Of a stretch of DNA of 64,000 nt, positions 4,373 to 31,955 are shown piece by piece (the stretch's first letter is position 1; each line of letters begins with the position of its first letter). The stretch spans positions 602,776 to 666,775 of the forward strand of contig JBEPYO010000001.1 in the NCBI GenBank assembly GCA_041641295.1, written 5' to 3'. The position numbers were made by a program, and so were the translations under genes. The DNA comes from Nitrososphaerota archaeon. GTDB taxonomy: Archaea; Thermoproteota; Nitrososphaeria_A; Caldarchaeales; Calditenuaceae. The notes below the pieces were generated by a model. It made no database searches, was not told the DNA's origin, and saw only the letters and a program-made list of their open reading frames with translations.

Positions 4373-4765
4373 GTACCCCCGGACTATATATGTGCCTATG
4401 CCCTATACCCGCGGAGCCCCCAACACCCACACGTCTAAGCTAAATGTGGCTTCGAAGAATCTCTTGGAAACGAGGTTGCTGGAGACACCACTGCTAAACC
4501 TTCCCCCACCCATAGTATAATTTCGAGACCCTTACATTAGTTTAGGTGTCTCAAAGCTTATACGTGGGAGAGTATAAAGCGTGTTACATTAGTGTGTGGT
4601 AGGTGTTAACAGCTGACAATAGAGCAGATAAATACTTGGGAATATGGTGCTAGGCTCATAATAGATGGTGGAATTCCGTACTCCCTACCAGGCAAGGCTG
4701 CTGGGCTGTCGAGAGAGGTTGGAAGAAGTGATCAACGACTATCACCTGAGCTGAAGGATAAGCTT
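4373..4765. other. AT-rich non-coding leader preceding HTH-LAGLIDADG gene 1. Its last ~90 nt are in-frame with and homologous to the N-terminus of paralog 2.
   Basis: Marked GC drop with no ORF of 60 aa or more. The in-frame upstream translation ...PGKAAGLSREVGRSDQRLSPELKDKLMEALE aligns to paralog 2 ...TGKGLGRVRQRMTPEEKKKLMDVLK, but it is closed by TAA at 4607-4609 and has no canonical start. Confidence 0.5.
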
Positions 4766-5926
4766 ATGGAAGCTCTGGAGATTGGGATCCGGAGCGGATT
4801 TAGCTATCATAATGTCTGGAGGATGCTGCGTGGTAGTGGAGTAGAAGTATCGAGGTCTACTGTCAGGAGATATTACTACAAGAGATTTCCTGAGAGGTTG
4901 GGGAAGAGAGGGCCGTGCCTCGACAGGTCTATTAGGATTAAGGTTTTCGGCGAGGTCAAAAGGCTGCGGGGATTGGGACATTCGTACAACAAGATCATAA
5001 GGGAGATAGAAGAGGTGTACGGAGTCCGGCTAAGCAAGTCGCAGGTCAGTGAGTGGTTGAGAGGGATACATAACCCATTCAATGGGTGTAGGATACCGTC
5101 CATAGACTTCCTAGAGAAGACCCCAGAACTCGCATACGTTATAGGGGTTGTCTCTGGCGACGGATGGGCTGTTAGAAAAAGAAAAGGCGATGCTAGGATA
5201 GGGGGCATGGTCAAAGACAGGGAGTTCATAGAAGAATTCTCGAGATGCTTGGGACAGGTTCTTAATAGGTATCCGCCGAAGCCTGCACCAATAGGAAACG
5301 GGTTCTTCCGAGTAATTGTTCAATCAAAGGCTCTCTACGACCTGCTTCGGAAGCCTATCGACATAGAGGTGATAAGACCATTCGTGGAGCATTGTGAAGA
5401 GTGTATGAAGAGCTTTTTGAGAGGATTCTTCGACAGCGAAGGCTCAGTAAGTAGTTATGGCTCTATTACATGCGTCAACACTGACGAAAGACTCATCAAC
5501 TATGTTAAGATGCTTCTAAATAATCTAGGCATCAAAACAACTGGGCCACATCTTCAGATGAAGAGAGGAACACCATTCTTCAGCAAGAAGAGGGGCAAGA
5601 CCTACCGGACAAGAAAGGACGCCTATAGCCTCTACATCAGGACATGCAGCAGGCTAAAATTCTACGAGCTAGTAGGCTTCACAATCAAGAAAAGGCAGCA
5701 AAGATTAGAAGAATACCTGAGGAGACTAGGACGCCTAAACATGCCACCCAGCCAAACCTCCCCCCAAACACTATCCTCAACTCCCATCTCAACCTCCCAC
5801 TCACAATATAGAATATCCGGAATGGCCGCGGGTGGGACTCGAACCCACGATCGCCGGGTCCACAGCCCGGAGTGTTACCAGCTACACCACCGCGGCCACC
5901 GCTACGAGTTCGCAGATTTCAGGTAA
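4766..5926 (+). CDS. HTH-LAGLIDADG homing-endonuclease-like protein, paralog 1. The C-terminal ~50 aa read through the antisense of tRNA-His.
   Basis: Two LAGLIDADG motifs (PELAYVIGVVSGDGWAV and FLRGFFDSEGSVSS) with N-terminal tandem HTH-like segments. It is about 45% identical by eye to ORF 14491..15651. The homologous core ends near 5770; the tail SGMAAGGTRTHDRRVHSPECYQLHH is antisense tRNA. Confidence 0.75.
   Translation: MEALEIGIRSGFSYHNVWRMLRGSGVEVSRSTVRRYYYKRFPERLGKRGPCLDRSIRIKVFGEVKRLRGLGHSYNKIIREIEEVYGVRLSKSQVSEWLRGIHNPFNGCRIPSIDFLEKTPELAYVIGVVSGDGWAVRKRKGDARIGGMVKDREFIEEFSRCLGQVLNRYPPKPAPIGNGFFRVIVQSKALYDLLRKPIDIEVIRPFVEHCEECMKSFLRGFFDSEGSVSSYGSITCVNTDERLINYVKMLLNNLGIKTTGPHLQMKRGTPFFSKKRGKTYRTRKDAYSLYIRTCSRLKFYELVGFTIKKRQQRLEEYLRRLGRLNMPPSQTSPQTLSSTPISTSHSQYRISGMAAGGTRTHDRRVHSPECYQLHHRGHRYEFADFR
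5824..5897 (-). tRNA. tRNA-His (GUG) with a genomically encoded G-1
   Basis: Hand-folded cloverleaf. G-1 pairs with C73. The acceptor is GCCGCGG/CCGCGGC, the D-stem GUGU/ACAC, the anticodon loop CUGUGGA and the T-arm GUGGG-UUCGAGU-CCCAC. No CCA is encoded. Confidence 0.85.
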
Positions 5927-6634: not shown

Positions 6635-7239
6635 AGCAGACCACCACCCTCCGGTGAAAGCAACCCTCCAAACATCTTAAGGAGCGTATTAACCTTCCCG
6701 TAGTAGGGGACTATCGGCCTGTTAGTATATTTCCTCTTACACCTTGTGCAGAAGAGGGCTCTGCCACTCAGGGTCAGGGGGGCGCCGCATATATCGCAGA
6801 AAGCCTGGAAGACGCCAAGACCACGACCCCTAACCGTGAGGCTGTATATGCCAGAGTAGTCCTCCCGGATCCGCGCTACAATTATGTCTCCCACGGTGAA
6901 GAGTGGTGTTTCGCGGCGTTGTAGGGCTGCCGCTGTCCAGTGGGTCTTGACCGGGTGGCCGGCTGCAGCGAGTATGTCGCAGATAACTAGCTTGTCTTGG
7001 ACCTCTCTAACTTGGCAGAGGACGAGGTCTCCCGTCCTGATCTTTACCGAGGGCTTTGCGGCCTTGACAGAGACCGAGTGTCTCTTCAAGTCGTACTCCG
7101 CAACCCCAGCGACGGTTGCCACCACGGCCCCGTCTTTTAGGACCTCTGCACCCTCACCCGGCATGAACTCCTCCACTACGCAGAGCTTATCGCCTGGAAG
7201 GACTAGCCTGCCTGATGCTTGAAACCTCACTCCGAGCAT
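6619..7239 (-). CDS. csl4: Exosome complex RNA-binding protein Csl4 (S1 domain plus zinc ribbon)
   Basis: S1-like core and the C-terminal zinc ribbon CDICGAPLTLSGRALFCTRC. It is adjacent to rpoL, as in the archaeal exosome superoperon. Confidence 0.8.
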   Translation of the reverse strand: MLGVRFQASGRLVLPGDKLCVVEEFMPGEGAEVLKDGAVVATVAGVAEYDLKRHSVSVKAAKPSVKIRTGDLVLCQVREVQDKLVICDILAAAGHPVKTHWTAAALQRRETPLFTVGDIIVARIREDYSGIYSLTVRGRGLGVFQAFCDICGAPLTLSGRALFCTRCKRKYTNRPIVPYYGKVNTLLKMFGGLLSPEGGGLLWRSR

Positions 7240-7291
7240 AGACTGCTACGGGGAGTAGATAAAGTAGATGTTCCATCATGAGGGGTGTGAG

Positions 7292-7891
7292 ATGGGTGGG
7301 CGGGGGTTGATTGTGGCCATCGAAGGAATTGACGGCGCTGGGAAGACAACCCAGGCTAAGCGGCTTGTGAGATTTCTAAGGTCGAAGGGCGTGGCGGCAG
7401 AGTATACCTCGGAGCCGACCAGCTCCGCCCTCGGAAAGATGATTAAGTCCTACTTGAGGCGGGGAGGAGTGGACCCCCACCTGCTGGCCCTCCTCTTCGC
7501 AGCAGACAGAGTCTACCATCTAAACAAAACTGTCAACCCATTGCTGGAGAGGGGCCGCGTAGTGGTTTGTGACAGATACCTTTACTCGTCCTATGCTTAT
7601 CAGGGCGTGATGACCGGCCATCCCCTTTGGGTCAGGGAGATTAACAGGATGGCCCCACCACCAGATATCGCTGTCCTGCTGGACATCAGCGTTGAAGAAG
7701 CCCTTAGGAGGAAGAAGAGGAGGATAAGGTTCGAGGACCCGGCCTTCCTAGAGGAGGTTAGGAGGGAGTATCTTAGACTGTGCGAGGCTGGGTTGATGGT
7801 AAAGGTAGACGCCGGAGGTGGGGTAGACGCAGTCTTCGTCGAGCTGGTGCGGGTTGTTTCGCCGCGGCTTGGCCTGAGTCCTAGCGCATGA
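7292..7891 (+). CDS. tmk: Thymidylate kinase. The listed ORF starts at 7268; the ATG at 7292 gives a typical N-terminus.
   Basis: P-loop IEGIDGAGKTT and the DRY motif (CDRYLYSSYAYQG). Confidence 0.85.
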   Translation: MGGRGLIVAIEGIDGAGKTTQAKRLVRFLRSKGVAAEYTSEPTSSALGKMIKSYLRRGGVDPHLLALLFAADRVYHLNKTVNPLLERGRVVVCDRYLYSSYAYQGVMTGHPLWVREINRMAPPPDIAVLLDISVEEALRRKKRRIRFEDPAFLEEVRREYLRLCEAGLMVKVDAGGGVDAVFVELVRVVSPRLGLSPSA

Positions 7892-14178: not shown

Positions 14179-14490
14179 ATCTCTTAAACAACTACACTAA
14201 CCAACCCATAACCCTTATCCCGGATTTTCAATCCTAACAGTCCAAGGACATCATAGTTTGTTCTTGGACTATTTGTGAATGAGCGATCACTAAAGTATCC
14301 ATATCCTGTGAATTTAGCTTCTATTGTGGCCTATGTGAATGCCTCTGGATTGACTGATCCTCCTCCTTGACTGATAGGCCTTTAGATTGGACGTGAGTGA
14401 CTTATTGGAAATTTAACAATCTTAAACCATAATATACTTTCAGCGAAGTCTCTTAAGAGTTATAAAGCCCCCATACTTGCTATTCTAGTC
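14179..14490. other. AT-rich non-coding leader preceding HTH-LAGLIDADG gene 2
   Basis: GC drops sharply and there are no ORFs. The arrangement is analogous to 4373..4765. Confidence 0.5.
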
Positions 14491-15651
14491 ATGTCTGGAG
14501 AGAGCTGCCCACGCGTAGCGGAGCCTGTAGCAGGGCAGGGAACAGGAGGACTAAATCCCGGTCTTCTCAACGAGCCCGAGGACCAAACAGGGAAAGGATT
14601 AGGAAGAGTCCGGCAGAGAATGACACCGGAGGAAAAGAAGAAGCTCATGGATGTGCTGAAGAGGGAGGCTCTGAGAGGGCTAGGATACGTGAGAATATGG
14701 CGGATGTTAAGGAAGGATGGGGTAAATGTATCGAGGCGGACCGTAGAATACTGGTATCGCAAGTTTTTTCCAGAGAGATTGGGGAGAAGGGGAAAATACC
14801 TTCCACGCGAATTGAGGATAACGCTGTACGAGGAAGTCCTGAGGCTGAGGAGGCAGGGATTAGGTTACAAGAAGATTAGGCGGAGGATTAAAGAATTATA
14901 TGATATCACGCTTGCACCCGCGGTAATTGTTGATTGGTGTAGAGGAATCCATACACCATATGGCGGAATACGAATTCCTACAGTAGACTACCTGAAGCCA
15001 TCCCCAGAGCTAGCTTATGTCATAGGTGTTGTGTGCGGGGATGGATCAGCTGTTAAAACAAGGGGGAGAAGCGGTGAATATGTTATCGGATCTCAAGTTA
15101 AGGATCGAGAGTTTAGCGAGAGATTCGCAGAATGCCTCGGTCGAATACTGAATAGGAGCCCGCCAACGCCGATACTCGTTAGAGGTAAGTTTCAGGTTTG
15201 TGTAAGATCGAGAACTCTTTACCAACTTCTCCGAAAACCAATCGACATAAACAGGATAAAGAATTTCACGGAGCATTGTGAAGACTGCATGAGAAGTTTC
15301 CTAAAAGGCTTCTTCGATAGCGAAGGATCAGTAAGTAAGGAGGGGGAAATTCGCTGTGACAACTCAGACAAACAACTCCTAAACTATGTCAAGACCCTCC
15401 TGAATCGTTTATGCATCGATGTAACAGGGCCGCACTTAGGTGTAAAGAAAGATACGCCCATCTTTAATAAGGATATGCAGAGAATATACATGAGAAAGAA
15501 AGAAGTATATTATCTCAATATCAGGGCTCCATATAGGCTAAAGTATTACGAGCTTGTTGGATTCTCTATTCGAAAGAAACAACAACGAATGGAAAACTAT
15601 TTCAGGAGAAGAGGACTACTGGGGGGTCGCCTACCAGACCACCCCCTATAG
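14491..15651 (+). CDS. HTH-LAGLIDADG homing-endonuclease-like protein, paralog 2
   Basis: LAGLIDADG motifs PELAYVIGVVCGDGSAV and FLKGFFDSEGSVSK with N-terminal HTH-like segments (LGYVRIWRMLRKDGVNVSRRTV; LGYKKIRRRIKELYDI). It is collinear with ORF 4766..5926. Confidence 0.75.
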   Translation: MSGESCPRVAEPVAGQGTGGLNPGLLNEPEDQTGKGLGRVRQRMTPEEKKKLMDVLKREALRGLGYVRIWRMLRKDGVNVSRRTVEYWYRKFFPERLGRRGKYLPRELRITLYEEVLRLRRQGLGYKKIRRRIKELYDITLAPAVIVDWCRGIHTPYGGIRIPTVDYLKPSPELAYVIGVVCGDGSAVKTRGRSGEYVIGSQVKDREFSERFAECLGRILNRSPPTPILVRGKFQVCVRSRTLYQLLRKPIDINRIKNFTEHCEDCMRSFLKGFFDSEGSVSKEGEIRCDNSDKQLLNYVKTLLNRLCIDVTGPHLGVKKDTPIFNKDMQRIYMRKKEVYYLNIRAPYRLKYYELVGFSIRKKQQRMENYFRRRGLLGGRLPDHPL

Positions 15652-15694
15652 TCTCTTTTCACCCCAATCTTGCTGGTGTCTCATTATATAAATG

Positions 15695-15786
15695 CGGGCC
15701 CGGTGGGACTCGAACCCACGGTTTCCGCGCCTTTAACGCTCTGCGGCTTAGGAGGCCGCCGCCTTATCCTTCTAGGCCACGGGCCC
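15695..15786 (-). tRNA. tRNA-Arg (CCU) with an ~18-nt insertion in the variable region, a putative non-canonical intron
   Basis: Hand-folded. The acceptor is GGGCCCG/CGGGCCC, the D-stem GCCU/AGGC, the anticodon stem GCGGC/GCCGC with loop CUCCUAA, and the T-arm GUGGG-UUCGAGU-CCCAC. Total length is 92 nt because 23 nt, not 5, separate the anticodon stem and T-stem. Confidence 0.7.
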
Positions 15787-19269: not shown

Positions 19270-19350
19270 CCCCACCACCCTGGCAGAGCCTAGACACATA
19301 ATCCCATGAACCTACATATACGGCCAGCCCCACGCGAATTTGAAGAGGGT

Positions 19351-19447
19351 GGGCCGGTAGATCAGCGGTAGATCGCCCGCCTCGCAAGCGGAGGCCTCGC
19401 TCCGCCGAGAACGCGGGAGGTCCCGGGTTCGAATCCCGGCCGGTCCA
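19351..19447 (+). tRNA. tRNA-Ala (CGC) with a ~25-nt intron at or next to the canonical 37/38 position
   Basis: Acceptor GGGCCGG/CCGGUCC with the G3:U70 Ala identity pair. The anticodon stem CCCGC pairs perfectly with GCGGG only across a 25-nt insert (19387-19411). The insert itself forms a GCGGAG/CTCCGC hairpin. Confidence 0.75.
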
Positions 19448-19514
19448 AGGTTTTCCAGTTGTTGTGCCGCTCTCAGAGGGGTTTATTTTTAAATATCGGG
19501 GCTGATGCGTCAGA

Positions 19515-29179: not shown

Positions 29180-29341
29180 TAGAGGGGTATCTCGGCTAAC
29201 CTCCTGCCTCGTAGAACGCCTGGCCAGTCGGGCAAACCCCCATCTAAGAGGCTTGCACTATCCAAAACCAGAAAAACCAGCACATACATTTAAACAAATA
29301 GACATCACGGCGAAAATAGTGTAACAAAATAAACCTATCAC

Positions 29342-29557
29342 ATGGGATTCCAGGCATTTACTAAGAACGGAGAGATAGAGCGTGATAATAGCACCGTCAG
29401 CGAGTTTTTGTCATGGGGTCAGAAACATGACCACTGGTTCTCTAAGAAGCATGATTGGTCTCCTTTGCTCAGGATTGAGGCTACGCTTGGCAAGAACTAT
29501 CTTATATTAAGGTGCATCCCAGACTTAGCCATAATACAACACCTACAACCATCCTAG
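29342..29557 (+). CDS. Small hypothetical ORF in a low-GC island
   Basis: TTTAAACA lies about 50 nt upstream. Composition is AT-rich. The call is uncertain. Confidence 0.25.
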   Translation: MGFQAFTKNGEIERDNSTVSEFLSWGQKHDHWFSKKHDWSPLLRIEATLGKNYLILRCIPDLAIIQHLQPS

Positions 29558-30175
29558 AAGGGCCTCCACTAGTGAACTAACGTTACTGCTGTTGCTGATG
29601 AGGATGGAGGGATGTGAATGATCTCCTTCGCGCTCCATCTTAAAGCCTACCTGAGGCGGGTCGAAGTAAGCGGGGTTTCTTACGACCCCTGTCTCTGTAG
29701 TAATCTTATCCAATCCAGCCATTTCCAAGGCCACGAAGAACTTGGAGGTAGCCCCACCTATCATAACTAGCTTCGCACCGCTTAAAGCAGCATTTCTAAG
29801 GAAGACAAGTAGCCTAGGATCACTCAAACTCTTCTCGAACCACTCGCCTCCGAATACGACCAACGTGTTAGCGCTCAGCGCCACATCTCCCGGAATATCT
29901 GCTAAAGATGTTATACGAGCCCCTCTAAATTCAAGCTCTTTAACAACTTCAGACGCCAACTTACCACCGCCTATATGAAGAACCATAAAATTACTTAAAT
30001 CGCGCTGCACGCTCCATCCTCCCGGTGTTTGAATACTCCGTGACCACATTGTTGATAGTAGAAAACTTGAAGATAATATAATGATTAATGCTGATAGTAC
30101 AATCAACCCCAACATAATCATGCTTTTTCTTTCTTTGATCGATAAAAGTTTCCTATCTACATGGATTATCATCAC
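29543..30175 (-). CDS. Membrane-anchored hypothetical protein (low-GC island)
   Basis: N-terminal TM helix followed by an extracytoplasmic domain. AT-rich codon usage. Confidence 0.45.
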   Translation of the reverse strand: MMIIHVDRKLLSIKERKSMIMLGLIVLSALIIILSSSFLLSTMWSRSIQTPGGWSVQRDLSNFMVLHIGGGKLASEVVKELEFRGARITSLADIPGDVALSANTLVVFGGEWFEKSLSDPRLLVFLRNAALSGAKLVMIGGATSKFFVALEMAGLDKITTETGVVRNPAYFDPPQVGFKMEREGDHSHPSILISNSSNVSSLVEALLGWL

Positions 30176-30551
30176 TAAGCTTGTATTGTCAACTTCTACT
30201 TAAGCTTAGTTCATATTCTCATTTAAGGTGGTTGTATCCGCGACAGGCCTGTTACCGAATGGGCTCTCTCATATGCGCTTACATTCTGGAGAGGATTATC
30301 AAGACGGCACCAATCTCTATCAGGCCTAATAAATTGACAAGTGTCCCGACACAGCCCACTTTCACGGTACTGAAGACTGCCTCATTTAAGATGTTGTCGC
30401 TAAAATGCTAACTATACAAAATATGAAGACTCTTAAAAAGGACTGTGATAGACTCCATCAGACCTTAAATGACCTCCCTTATATTTGGACACCACATACC
30501 AAAAAATAAAAGAAAGGTAAGTAATGCTTAGTATATGGAGGGTAGCGGTAT

Positions 30552-31562
30552 TTGAAAAACGTCACCCTCATTTTTGACGATAAATGTGCTATATGTCGGA
30601 GACTTGCCACTGATGTGAAAAAATATTCTTATGGGTTAATAAGGGCATTACCGCTTGACAGCGGCGAATCGAAAGAGTTGCTCCATAAACTATATGGTGA
30701 ACACCCTCCCAACAGCTTCTTTCTAATTCAGCAAGATGGAAGCTATATACAGGTGAGTTATGGTATCAGGGCAGCTTTTAAAATAGCTAGTCTGGTGGGT
30801 CTCAAGAATGCTGTGAGGCTTTTTGCATCTTATCTCGACTATCACAGGGTGCTCAGGAGGTCGTTGAGGTCAAACATATGCTGTAATAATGGAACTATAG
30901 CGATTAATGTGGCTAAACGTCGAACATTAAACTTCCTAATTAGGGGCGGGGTCTTATTAGCATTTTACGCATTGCTAGGGTCTTGGCTTATTCCCAAGAC
31001 TCTCGGAGAACAGCGGGAAAGACCTATAAGAATAATTGAGACAAGACGAGTAGCTGGTGAAGAAAAAAGGAATATCTTAGGGGGTGTCATCTCTGATAAT
31101 GACTTCCTAAATGCAATGCACTGGCTAATCAGAAATTCCTTCACGCCTCAGATCAATGACGCTAGCGTGGAGCATATTTTTGCCCAGGCTGGTGAGACAC
31201 AGCTGGTCTTTCTCAAAGTACAAATACCATTCAGAGGTGAGGGGGACCCCCAACTGCTCTTCATAAGAGGCATAGAGGGTCCGCTGAAGGATGAAAAAGT
31301 GGCTCTAGCGTCTTATATTTCTCCAGATGGCCACCAACACGGATTCGCGAGTAAAGATGGAATAACCAGAGAGGTTACCTATGGGAGCCATGATCCTCTA
31401 GGCTGCGGAATCTGCTTAGCCAGATGCGTGGTGCTCACTTGCTGGACATGTTGGATCGCATGCGCATATGCGTCTACGGGTGTAGGTGTTGCGCTTTGCC
31501 TCGTATGCACCCTAGTATCTTGTCCATTCTGTTTTACGGGGTGTTACTCGTACTGTCGGTAG
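30552..31562 (+). CDS. Fusion protein: N-terminal DCC-family (DUF393) thiol-disulfide oxidoreductase, a TM helix, a central domain and a 12-Cys hydrophobic C-terminal tail. TTG start.
   Basis: LIFDDKCAICRRLA is the DxxCxxC DCC motif. The C-terminus is LGCGICLARCVVLTCWTCWIACAYASTGVGVALCLVCTLVSCPFCFTGCYSYCR. The gene lies in a low-GC region. Confidence 0.6.
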   Translation: MKNVTLIFDDKCAICRRLATDVKKYSYGLIRALPLDSGESKELLHKLYGEHPPNSFFLIQQDGSYIQVSYGIRAAFKIASLVGLKNAVRLFASYLDYHRVLRRSLRSNICCNNGTIAINVAKRRTLNFLIRGGVLLAFYALLGSWLIPKTLGEQRERPIRIIETRRVAGEEKRNILGGVISDNDFLNAMHWLIRNSFTPQINDASVEHIFAQAGETQLVFLKVQIPFRGEGDPQLLFIRGIEGPLKDEKVALASYISPDGHQHGFASKDGITREVTYGSHDPLGCGICLARCVVLTCWTCWIACAYASTGVGVALCLVCTLVSCPFCFTGCYSYCR

Positions 31563-31583
31563 GTTGTCAAACCCTTTTGATAG

Positions 31584-31955
31584 GTGTTAGCGACCATGTC
31601 TATGGATTATGATTGGAAGAGAGCTAGGAGAATTGCAGTATATCACATAATGTTGGGATTGATGTTTTTAATACCTACTTTACTTGGTCCATTTGCTCTG
31701 CTCTTAAACTTAGACGTATATTGGCCTCGTGGTTGGTATTGGTTATATGTAGCTCCGCCGATATACGGGTCTATGGCAGTCCACAACTTCCTTATAGCTT
31801 ATGGTCTACGGAGGAAGAGGCCTTGGGCGTGGCGTGAGACGGCTCTCAAGGACCCAAGATGGTACGCCTCAAGACGCTCAATACTCTCGGCAATAGCAAT
31901 AACAATCATAATAGTTGTGTCAATTATAATATTATTTTTTTCATATGCGGGGTGA
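31584..31955 (+). CDS. Small polytopic membrane protein (low-GC island)
   Basis: Three predicted TM helices. It lies immediately downstream of the Cys-rich fusion gene. Confidence 0.45.
   Translation: MLATMSMDYDWKRARRIAVYHIMLGLMFLIPTLLGPFALLLNLDVYWPRGWYWLYVAPPIYGSMAVHNFLIAYGLRRKRPWAWRETALKDPRWYASRRSILSAIAITIIIVVSIIILFFSYAG

Follow-up and report, generated by a model that had tools for sequence, protein, structure and literature searches.

A predicted LAGLIDADG homing-type endonuclease gene beside tRNA-Arg in a Calditenuaceae archaeon belongs to a family of elements that probably target the 3′ ends of tRNA genes

What is a gene for a LAGLIDADG protein doing tail to tail with a transfer RNA (tRNA) gene, twice in one short piece of an archaeal genome? 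The question arises at positions 14,179 to 15,786 of a 64,000-nt stretch from a Nitrososphaerota archaeon of the Calditenuaceae (GenBank assembly GCA_041641295.1, contig JBEPYO010000001.1, positions 602,776 to 666,775 of the forward strand), which was analysed at its full length and is called the window below. Here a 386-aa open reading frame (ORF), referred to as copy 2, lies between hypA and a convergent tRNA-Arg(CCT) gene, and a related ORF, copy 1, lies beside a tRNA-His gene next to tfs. A first-pass annotation, made from the sequence and its translated ORFs, had read both as paralogs with a helix-turn-helix (HTH) and a double-LAGLIDADG region and had argued for a targeted insertion mechanism in place of chance. 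In textbooks, homing endonucleases figure as parasites of introns and inteins that each attack a single site. The reading that we prefer, with a probability of about three in four, is that copy 2 is a selfish element of ~1.5 kb with a LAGLIDADG homing-type endonuclease as its only gene, and that it targets the 3′ boundary of tRNA genes generally. The family to which it belongs occupies the same position beside tRNA genes of nearly every specificity in many genomes of Caldarchaeales ('Aigarchaeota') and other Nitrososphaeria.

Close relatives with the orthologous sites, their flanking proteins 93-95% identical to those of the window, were identified through GlmS and CimA searches; individual loci are cited here by L numbers. 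In two relatives, L093 (GlmS 95% identical) and L094 (94%), the order glmS, tRNA-Arg(CCT), hypA is found with no element, and the tRNA 3′ end is followed directly by the sequence found in the window at 14220 and leftwards. With slashes marking the boundaries, the junction in L093 reads ...CGGGCCCG/A/GGATAGGATTATGGGTTGG...ATG (hypA), and the two junctions of copy 2 in the window read ...CGGGCCCG C/ATTTATATAATGAG...(1.47 kb)...GAAAATCCG/GGATAAGGGTTATGGGTTGG; the AT-rich end of the element is absent from the empty sites. For copy 1 the empty site is that of L097 (CimA 94% identical), where the SIMPL gene and tfs lie 204 bp apart with only tRNA-His between them, as against an interval of 1,581 bp in the window, and the copy 1 junctions are GCTAAATG/TGGC TTCGAAG... 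and ...CCGGAA/TGGCCGCGGG. Since the orthologous sites are empty and their flanks conserved, both window copies are insertions (~14221-15694 and ~4451-5821), each placed 0-1 nt past the discriminator base with the tRNA left intact. The native sequence immediately 5′ of hypA (~42 bp) is also conserved in the empty-site genomes; there tRNA-Arg stands ~47-50 bp ahead of hypA and on its strand. Insertion of copy 2 parted hypA from the transcription unit of glmS and tRNA-Arg by 1.47 kb and left the proximal upstream sequence of hypA unchanged. The rewiring of hypA expression that the first-pass annotation had suggested may or may not have followed.

At both distal junctions 2-4 nt of the tRNA terminus are repeated, GCC(A) at copy 1 (GGC at 4448-4450) and CCG at copy 2 (14221-14223, tRNA strand). 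These repeats would fit a staggered cut at the tRNA end, such as LAGLIDADG enzymes make (with 4-nt 3′ overhangs), and are too short to be firm. A repeat search found no terminal inverted repeats, no direct repeats of the attachment-site (att) type and no junction repeat longer than 4 nt. A different occupant of the copy 2 site was seen in the relative HR02 (L096:6835-7360, BEHE01000015.1), where a 515-bp filler starting ATTTTAATAATTATGG...GGGGGTAAA sits exactly at the copy 2 point, with a repeat of CG. A weak resemblance to an element tail is confined to its first ~55 nt; what follows is repeated at another place in HR02 (the middle part at L017:2519-2729), and the filler is possibly a remnant, an internally deleted element or a different small repeat. 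Flanking proteins of the source genome, a contig of 1.55 Mb, are similar to those of HR02, which places the genome in Calditenuaceae.

The family was surveyed by an alignment-based scan of one genome per species, which gave 80 loci from metagenome-assembled genomes (MAGs) of Caldarchaeales, Geocrenenecus, Wolframiiraptor, Calditenuis, Nitrososphaerales and Bathyarchaeia; a query of genome contigs with a single protein matched nothing. The family is multi-copy in many genomes (3 copies in the source genome, at least 13 in PSS.bin.6, at least 7 in BF2 bin 8), and copies are often found at contig ends. Docking was counted over the 75 copies whose C-terminus is intact and whose downstream sequence extends for 200 nt or more. 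A convergent tRNA gene was present within 150 nt in 45 of the 75, where 0.28 would be expected from the tRNA density of the same loci (binomial P ~2e-89), and its 3′ end lay 38-144 nt (median 73) from the end of protein homology. Five further copies have a T-arm-like motif missed by Aragorn, a same-orientation tRNA was found at only one copy, and the occupied tRNAs span 28 isoacceptors. Docking at tRNA genes is a family-wide property and not chance. Together with the empty sites of both window copies and a third paralog of the source genome at tRNA-Ile, these counts bear out the earlier proposal of targeted insertion, and the tRNA proximity on which it was built is reproduced well beyond the two original loci.

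The position of the junction is equally regular. In 42 of the 45 junctions that could be anchored on the T-loop, the offset from T-loop to junction is 13-14 nt, and in the T-loop-aligned loci ~18 nt of 70-90% AT switch sharply to the GC-rich acceptor stem. Across the family, the AT-rich end of the element meets the tRNA 0-1 nt past the discriminator base. Copies from the same genome that lie beside different tRNAs share 75-93% DNA identity up to the discriminator base. The AT-rich element end is conserved across the family whether it is coding or not, and so is, at the DNA level, a C-rich motif with the consensus CCaCCCAACCAaCCcTCCCC, often followed by a T-run, which is found either in frame (PPNQPSP) or past the stop codon. 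It lies at 15625-15675 in the window, where it starts within the last codons of copy 2, at 5740-5800 for copy 1, and in the tails of most family loci (e.g. L034:4840-4900). The idea that the tail is much more conserved than the ORF was dropped, as the difference is modest (0.79 vs 0.72).

Degenerate fragments of tRNA 3′ ends, consisting of a T-arm and an acceptor-like part, were observed between the tail and the intact tRNA in L039:4900-4950, L068:1455-1490 and L055:4845-4875, which suggests partial tRNA duplication or co-conversion at insertion. In L002 a perfect direct duplication of 130 bp (5065-5194 and 5292-5421) spans the tRNA-Val(CAC) gene just behind a family copy.

The protein encoded by copy 2 matched Pfam PF14528 (LAGLIDADG_3) with 51.3 bits, and that of copy 1 with 62.6 bits (cutoff 22.5); N-terminal HTH matches in Pfam were below threshold for both proteins, as were all matches to HTH domains of the transposase type. 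An AlphaFold2 model of a 343-aa form, computed with a 40-sequence alignment (A1), had a mean predicted local distance difference test score (pLDDT) of 89.4 and contained two three-helix HTH modules (residues 3-49 and 63-107, in the numbering of the 343-aa form) followed by a double alpha-beta-beta-alpha-beta-beta-alpha core (residues 129-330). The HTH plus double-LAGLIDADG architecture of the 386-aa ORF, as first annotated, was thereby confirmed. The closest solved structure in a sequence search of the PDB was I-DmoI (E 3e-5), which was also the best fold match in Foldseek (E 9e-10, target-normalised TM-score 0.75), with PI-PfuI next and WhiA among the weaker fold matches. Both catalytic motifs, LAYVIGVVCGDG and FLKGFFDSEG, with their GDG and DSEG, are present in all three paralogs of the source genome, and in alignment A1 the GDG is invariant, as are the D, E and G of DSEG, while the S is nearly so. 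Foldseek with the N-terminal HTH domain alone returned nothing significant; its top matches were to the bipartite HTH domains of Pax paired, Tc3, Mos1 and Mu transposases, which we treat as a lead only. As modelled, the copy 2 product would be a free-standing, monomeric, double-motif LAGLIDADG endonuclease of the I-DmoI type, with two tandem HTH modules ahead of the core. It is the only ORF of the element, and no integrase or transposase gene was found in or near the element.

The corresponding database protein (P0001) begins at M44 of the copy 2 ORF (position 14620) and accounts for the 343-aa form. A box resembling a B recognition element and TATA box (BRE/TATA), AAGAGTTATAAAGC, stands 23 nt 5′ of the ATG at 14491 and is a putative archaeal promoter; its spacing favours the 386-aa form, with a predicted leaderless mRNA. 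Judged from its sequence, the element appears to consist of its own promoter and leader, a gene convergent on tRNA-Arg(CCT) and a short tail. Its guanine plus cytosine (GC) content is 0.446, compared with a window mean of 0.541 (sd 0.035). The AT-rich DNA between the hypA start and the ORF measures 312 bp (14179-14490, GC ~0.39-0.43), close to the ~310 bp first reported as a leader, but its first ~42 bp (14179-14220) are the native hypA flank and lie outside the insertion. From the stop codon to the 3′ end of the tRNA-Arg gene (Rfam 59.5 bits) we measured 42 bp, in place of the 44 bp given at first. Apart from the tRNAs, Rfam had no match in leaders or tails, and the leaders and tails of the window copies had no DNA similarity to any other locus among L001-L081. 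Folding of the copy 2 leader on both strands gave no significant structure (z -0.65 and -0.82), so that a non-coding RNA in the leader is unsupported for the window copy.

Copy 1 also has both catalytic motifs intact. The two window proteins are 55% identical over 326 aa (E 2e-123), which settles the paralogy by protein alignment, and at the DNA level they are barely alignable (nucleotide identity 59%). Their proportion of differing synonymous sites (pS) is 0.79, i.e. synonymous sites are saturated, and that of nonsynonymous sites (pN) is 0.30; because of this saturation the window copies are taken to be old, in agreement with the first-pass view that they are old or fast-evolving. Both stand beside a convergent tRNA as that annotation had stated, but the geometry is not the same throughout, since the copy 1 ORF, its stop codon lost, does not end before the tRNA but continues for 60 codons, antisense across tRNA-His. 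A box, GGAGAGTATAAAGC, precedes a GTG at 4603 in copy 1 with the same spacing as the box of copy 2, and this promoter-predicted start does not share the frame of the main ORF, in which the N-terminal extension can still be read from ~4660 on. With its frameshifted start and lost stop, copy 1 looks to be in early decay, and copy 2 looks intact. The third paralog of the source genome (P0002), judged by its called stop codon, ends 2 bp short of a convergent tRNA-Ile(GAT).

In the protein tree, copies group mostly by genome and sister copies lie at different tRNAs, which points to movement onto further tRNA genes inside single genomes. In some clades the tRNA stays the same from genome to genome, as with tRNA-Cys(GCA) in five soil MAGs. 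The ratio of nonsynonymous to synonymous divergence (dN/dS) of same-genome pairs is 0.21-0.51, and the ORF is therefore under purifying selection. The distribution of the family is patchy and multi-copy, with degenerating copies: leaders are mosaic between copies, several copies give fragmented high-scoring segment pairs, and in L038 (1915-2130) a decayed copy directly behind tRNA-Ser(AGA) is reduced to a solo tail and the final ~100 nt of the ORF. Presence or absence is polymorphic at orthologous sites, copy 2 being absent from L093 and L094 and copy 1 from L097.

The following mechanism would be consistent with these results. The nuclease would recognise features common to the 3′ part of tRNA genes, among them a near-invariant T-arm box at a fixed 13-14 nt from the junction, which may be read by the tandem HTH modules. 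It would make a staggered cut at the 3′ boundary of the tRNA gene, and the break would be repaired by copying the element from an occupied tRNA locus, which would give a precise junction on the tRNA side and leave a 2-4-nt repeat of the tRNA terminus at the distal one. As the insertion would replace the downstream half of the target, the site would then be immunised. The T-rich element end, as read on the tRNA strand, would serve as a new terminator so that the tRNA stays functional, and the C-rich motif with its T-run may terminate the endonuclease gene on the other strand. One step further, class-of-genes specificity may arise from a bipartite HTH that reads the T-arm box and a core that cuts at the discriminator base, making every tRNA gene of a genome a potential landing pad. 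The unusual disruption, fragmentation and intron gain of tRNA genes in these archaea could then be due in part to the resulting activity (breaks at tRNA genes, partly duplicated tRNAs, mosaic leaders). We put this extension forward tentatively, at somewhat less than even odds.

Several points weigh against a generally tRNA-targeting endonuclease element. For ~25-30 of the 75 copies no adjoining tRNA was detectable, and two loci have the wrong geometry: in L006 (208-1371) the 3′ end of the gene faces the 5′ end of a same-orientation tRNA-Ser(TGA), and in L029 (3637-4927), from a Caldiarchaeum subterraneum MAG, a tRNA-Gly(GCC) is co-oriented with the endonuclease gene and found on its leader side. 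Being ancient and single, the window paralogs may have ceased to be mobile. Neither the IMG/VR viral contigs, GenBank phages nor PLSDB plasmids contained a relative that might act as a carrier between hosts. Both the cleavage site and the copying mechanism are ones that we infer, and the 2-4-nt junction repeats fall short of statistical firmness. Ectopic copying between different tRNA loci would find little homology on the distal side, and the model does not account for the tolerance of many different downstream flanks by a single protein lineage.

That an ordinary free-standing LAGLIDADG ORF came to lie next to a tRNA gene by chance is refuted by the binomial probability across the 75 copies. 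Recombination or retention with no endonuclease targeting, in which the last 40 nt of the tRNA supply the homology or only insertions behind tRNAs are harmless and the LAGLIDADG protein is a passenger or has another role, is in our judgement unlikely. It could draw on the mean identity of 72% between the first 40 nt of different occupied tRNAs, on the mosaic leaders and on the tRNA fragments in L039, L055 and L068, but the homology is on one side only, and selection alone would hardly produce the fixed T-loop offset. The invariant catalytic residues and the purifying selection on the ORF are, in turn, what one would expect if the nuclease drives its own spread.

We think it improbable that the protein is a domesticated regulator, like WhiA, of the neighbouring tRNA, hypA or tfs. 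The combination of HTH and LAGLIDADG does recall WhiA, a weaker fold match, and the age of the window copies, their intactness and their long-term constraint also speak for it; nevertheless the catalytic Asp and Glu are kept, close relatives differ in presence and absence, other genomes hold up to 14 or more copies together with pseudogenes and a solo tail, and the neighbours are unrelated apart from the tRNA. The chance is very slight that the locus is what is left of an insertion sequence, or of an element with a tyrosine integrase like those of the SSV or pNOB8 type, that used the tRNA as attachment site. tRNA 3′ ends are classic archaeal att sites, the N-terminal HTH modules weakly resemble transposase HTH domains, and an integrase was proposed by Sugahara et al. 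(PMC3293823) for a probably related Caldiarchaeum element. Against this stand the lack of any integrase or transposase gene in or near the element, of terminal inverted repeats and of any direct repeat of a tRNA segment longer than 4 nt, an insertion point outside the tRNA with no recombination within it, and an element size of only 1.4-1.5 kb. An intron- or intein-encoded endonuclease was also considered and rejected: the ORF lies outside the tRNA and on the opposite strand, with no host gene and no intein flanks.

Among characterised proteins, I-DmoI (from the 23S rRNA intron of Desulfurococcus mobilis) and the endonuclease domain of the PI-PfuI intein share with the tRNA-docking protein the monomeric double-motif fold, both catalytic acidic residues and an archaeal origin. 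They reside inside an intron or intein, each with one conserved site in a single gene, whereas the tRNA-docking protein is free-standing, has ~125 aa of tandem HTH at its N-terminus and is encoded outside the 3′ end of many tRNAs. WhiA, a bacterial transcription factor, shares the double-LAGLIDADG scaffold and an HTH, but its HTH is C-terminal, its catalytic residues are lost and it is a single-copy, conserved, immobile gene. SegB, from the tRNA gene cluster of T4, is a free-standing GIY-YIG homing endonuclease of T-even phage, found at one locus; its intergenic gene adjoins tRNA genes, and the enzyme cuts the allele that lacks the gene, which is then copied in by repair. Unlike the tRNA-docking family, SegB is not known to be inserted at a tRNA boundary or to target tRNA genes in general. 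Elements of the SSV and pNOB8 type, Ty3 and the Dictyostelium TRE retrotransposons use tRNA genes as conserved safe landing sites, and the retrotransposons accept any tRNA gene. These systems rely on tyrosine recombinases with att repeats inside the tRNA, or on integrases tethered to RNA polymerase III factors, whereas the tRNA-docking family encodes a LAGLIDADG nuclease, lacks an att repeat and joins the tRNA at the discriminator base.

The closest precedent is an insertion of ~1.9 kb beside tRNA-Thr in C. subterraneum, a putative transposable element in which ORF 'b', of 813 bp, follows a non-coding region 'a' that is conserved (Sugahara et al. 2012, PMC3293823). Seven protein paralogs, an atypical composition and one further copy at another tRNA-Thr were reported; ORF 'b' was predicted to bind DNA and termed a putative DNA recombinase, and integration of the integrase type was proposed (PMC3293823). 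The 'a+b' element and the tRNA-docking family have in common the host lineage, a size of ~1.4-1.9 kb, layout, copy number and tRNA adjacency, and the family member L029 from C. subterraneum matches the element in size and layout. The two are probably the same element, a match made by size, host, copy number and layout and not by sequence. In that description (PMC3293823) the LAGLIDADG nature, the generic targeting of tRNAs and the junction at the discriminator base went unrecognised, with tRNA-Thr the only tRNA. The leader of L029 begins GCTTCGAAAAAAT, which resembles the left end of copy 1 in the window, GGCTTCGAAGAAT. In the literature that could be searched, no paper connects LAGLIDADG genes with these lineages or with the flanks of tRNAs, and the tRNA-docking LAGLIDADG family is large and essentially undescribed.

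The features of both window copies are collected in Table 1.

Table 1. Positions of the two endonuclease elements and associated features in the window
Feature	Position	Strand	Remarks
hypA native upstream flank	14179-14220	-	Outside the element and its distal boundary; aligns with the sequence directly after tRNA-Arg in empty-site L093, L094 and L096
Whole copy 2 element (leader, endonuclease gene, tail), ~1.47 kb	~14221-15694	+	Boundaries +/-3 nt; absent at the L093 and L094 site
AT-rich 5′ leader of copy 2	14221-14490	+	GC 0.385; local 12-bp hairpin at 14239-14270
BRE/TATA-like box AAGAGTTATAAAGC	14455-14468	+	Read from sequence
Copy 2 endonuclease gene	14491-15651	+	ORF call, Pfam, AlphaFold2
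Low-complexity N-terminal extension of copy 2 gene	14491-14619	+	
HTH module 1 of copy 2 gene	~14626-14766	+	
HTH module 2 of copy 2 gene	~14806-14940	+	
Double-LAGLIDADG core of copy 2 gene	~15004-15609	+	
LAGLIDADG motif 1 LAYVIGVVCGDG	15010-15045	+	Catalytic Asp within GDG
LAGLIDADG motif 2 FLKGFFDSEG	15298-15327	+	Catalytic Glu
3′ tail of copy 2	15652-15694	+	C-rich motif, then AT-rich terminus CATTATATAAAT against the tRNA; tRNA-strand reading ATTTATATAATG
tRNA-Arg(CCT), docking target of copy 2, intact, 93 nt	15694-15786	-	~18-nt insert in variable region
Whole copy 1 element, ~1.37 kb, between SIMPL gene and tRNA-His	~4451-5821	+	Empty site in L097; GC 0.469
Copy 1 ORF	4766-5926	+	Signs of early decay at 4603-4766 and 5738-5926
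tRNA-His(GTG), docking target of copy 1, intact	5823-5897	-	Rfam 66.8 bits

The tRNA-Arg(CCT) gene and its surroundings vary in ways of their own. The insert in its variable region, AGAGCGTTAAAGGCGCGGAAAC, is probably a non-canonical intron; L094 (7430-7545) has AGAT at this place in a 76-nt gene, whereas the 98-nt gene of HR02 and the 3′ part of the BF2 gene also carry an insert. In the closest relative, L093 (3890-5540; GCA_038741355.1, JAVYLC010000019.1) the orthologous tRNA-Arg(CCT) is itself split in the anticodon stem by an insertion of ~1.54 kb, the 5′ part ending ...AAGGCGGCGG and the 3′ 67 nt resuming 1.5 kb on; the insertion holds a 260-aa ORF on the tRNA strand with no Pfam match and may be a giant intron or a different mobile element. 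Between glmS and tRNA-Arg, L094 has ~600 bp (6826-7430) with a 119-aa ORF, again with no Pfam match, that neither the window nor L093 and L096 contain. When metagenomes were scanned with the 28 nt at the tRNA-Arg 3′ end, all matches were unrelated loci of tRNA-Arg(CCG), lacking both synteny and an endonuclease gene.

Elsewhere in the window a third tRNA gene, tRNA-Ala(CGC) at 19350-19448 (+), has a 25-nt intron (Rfam 58.2 bits); it was missed by the default tRNA scan and found by Aragorn with the intron option. It has no adjoining endonuclease gene, so that two of the three window tRNAs are occupied. The lowest-GC island of the window (29200-31900, ~0.42 vs 0.54) carries hypothetical membrane and Cys-rich ORFs of 210, 336 and 123 aa and may be foreign DNA unrelated to the endonuclease elements.

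While the kind of gene is known, a class-of-genes insertion specificity would be new for a free-standing homing endonuclease gene. A free-standing LAGLIDADG lineage docking with single-nucleotide precision behind tRNA genes of at least 28 kinds would be a new targeting logic for this enzyme class, and would be the counterpart, built on a DNA nuclease, of the way in which retrotransposons and integrases that target tRNAs find a safe haven. If the division of labour between HTH and nuclease is as proposed, the protein would be a compact, thermostable, tRNA-gene-recognising nuclease of possible interest. Hundreds of proteins annotated only as 'LAGLIDADG family homing endonuclease' would become one coherent mobile-element family. 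For the organisms themselves, the presence of the element explains assembly breaks at the tRNA loci of these genomes and makes it a candidate agent behind the tRNA-locus heterogeneity of Caldiarchaeum and its relatives.

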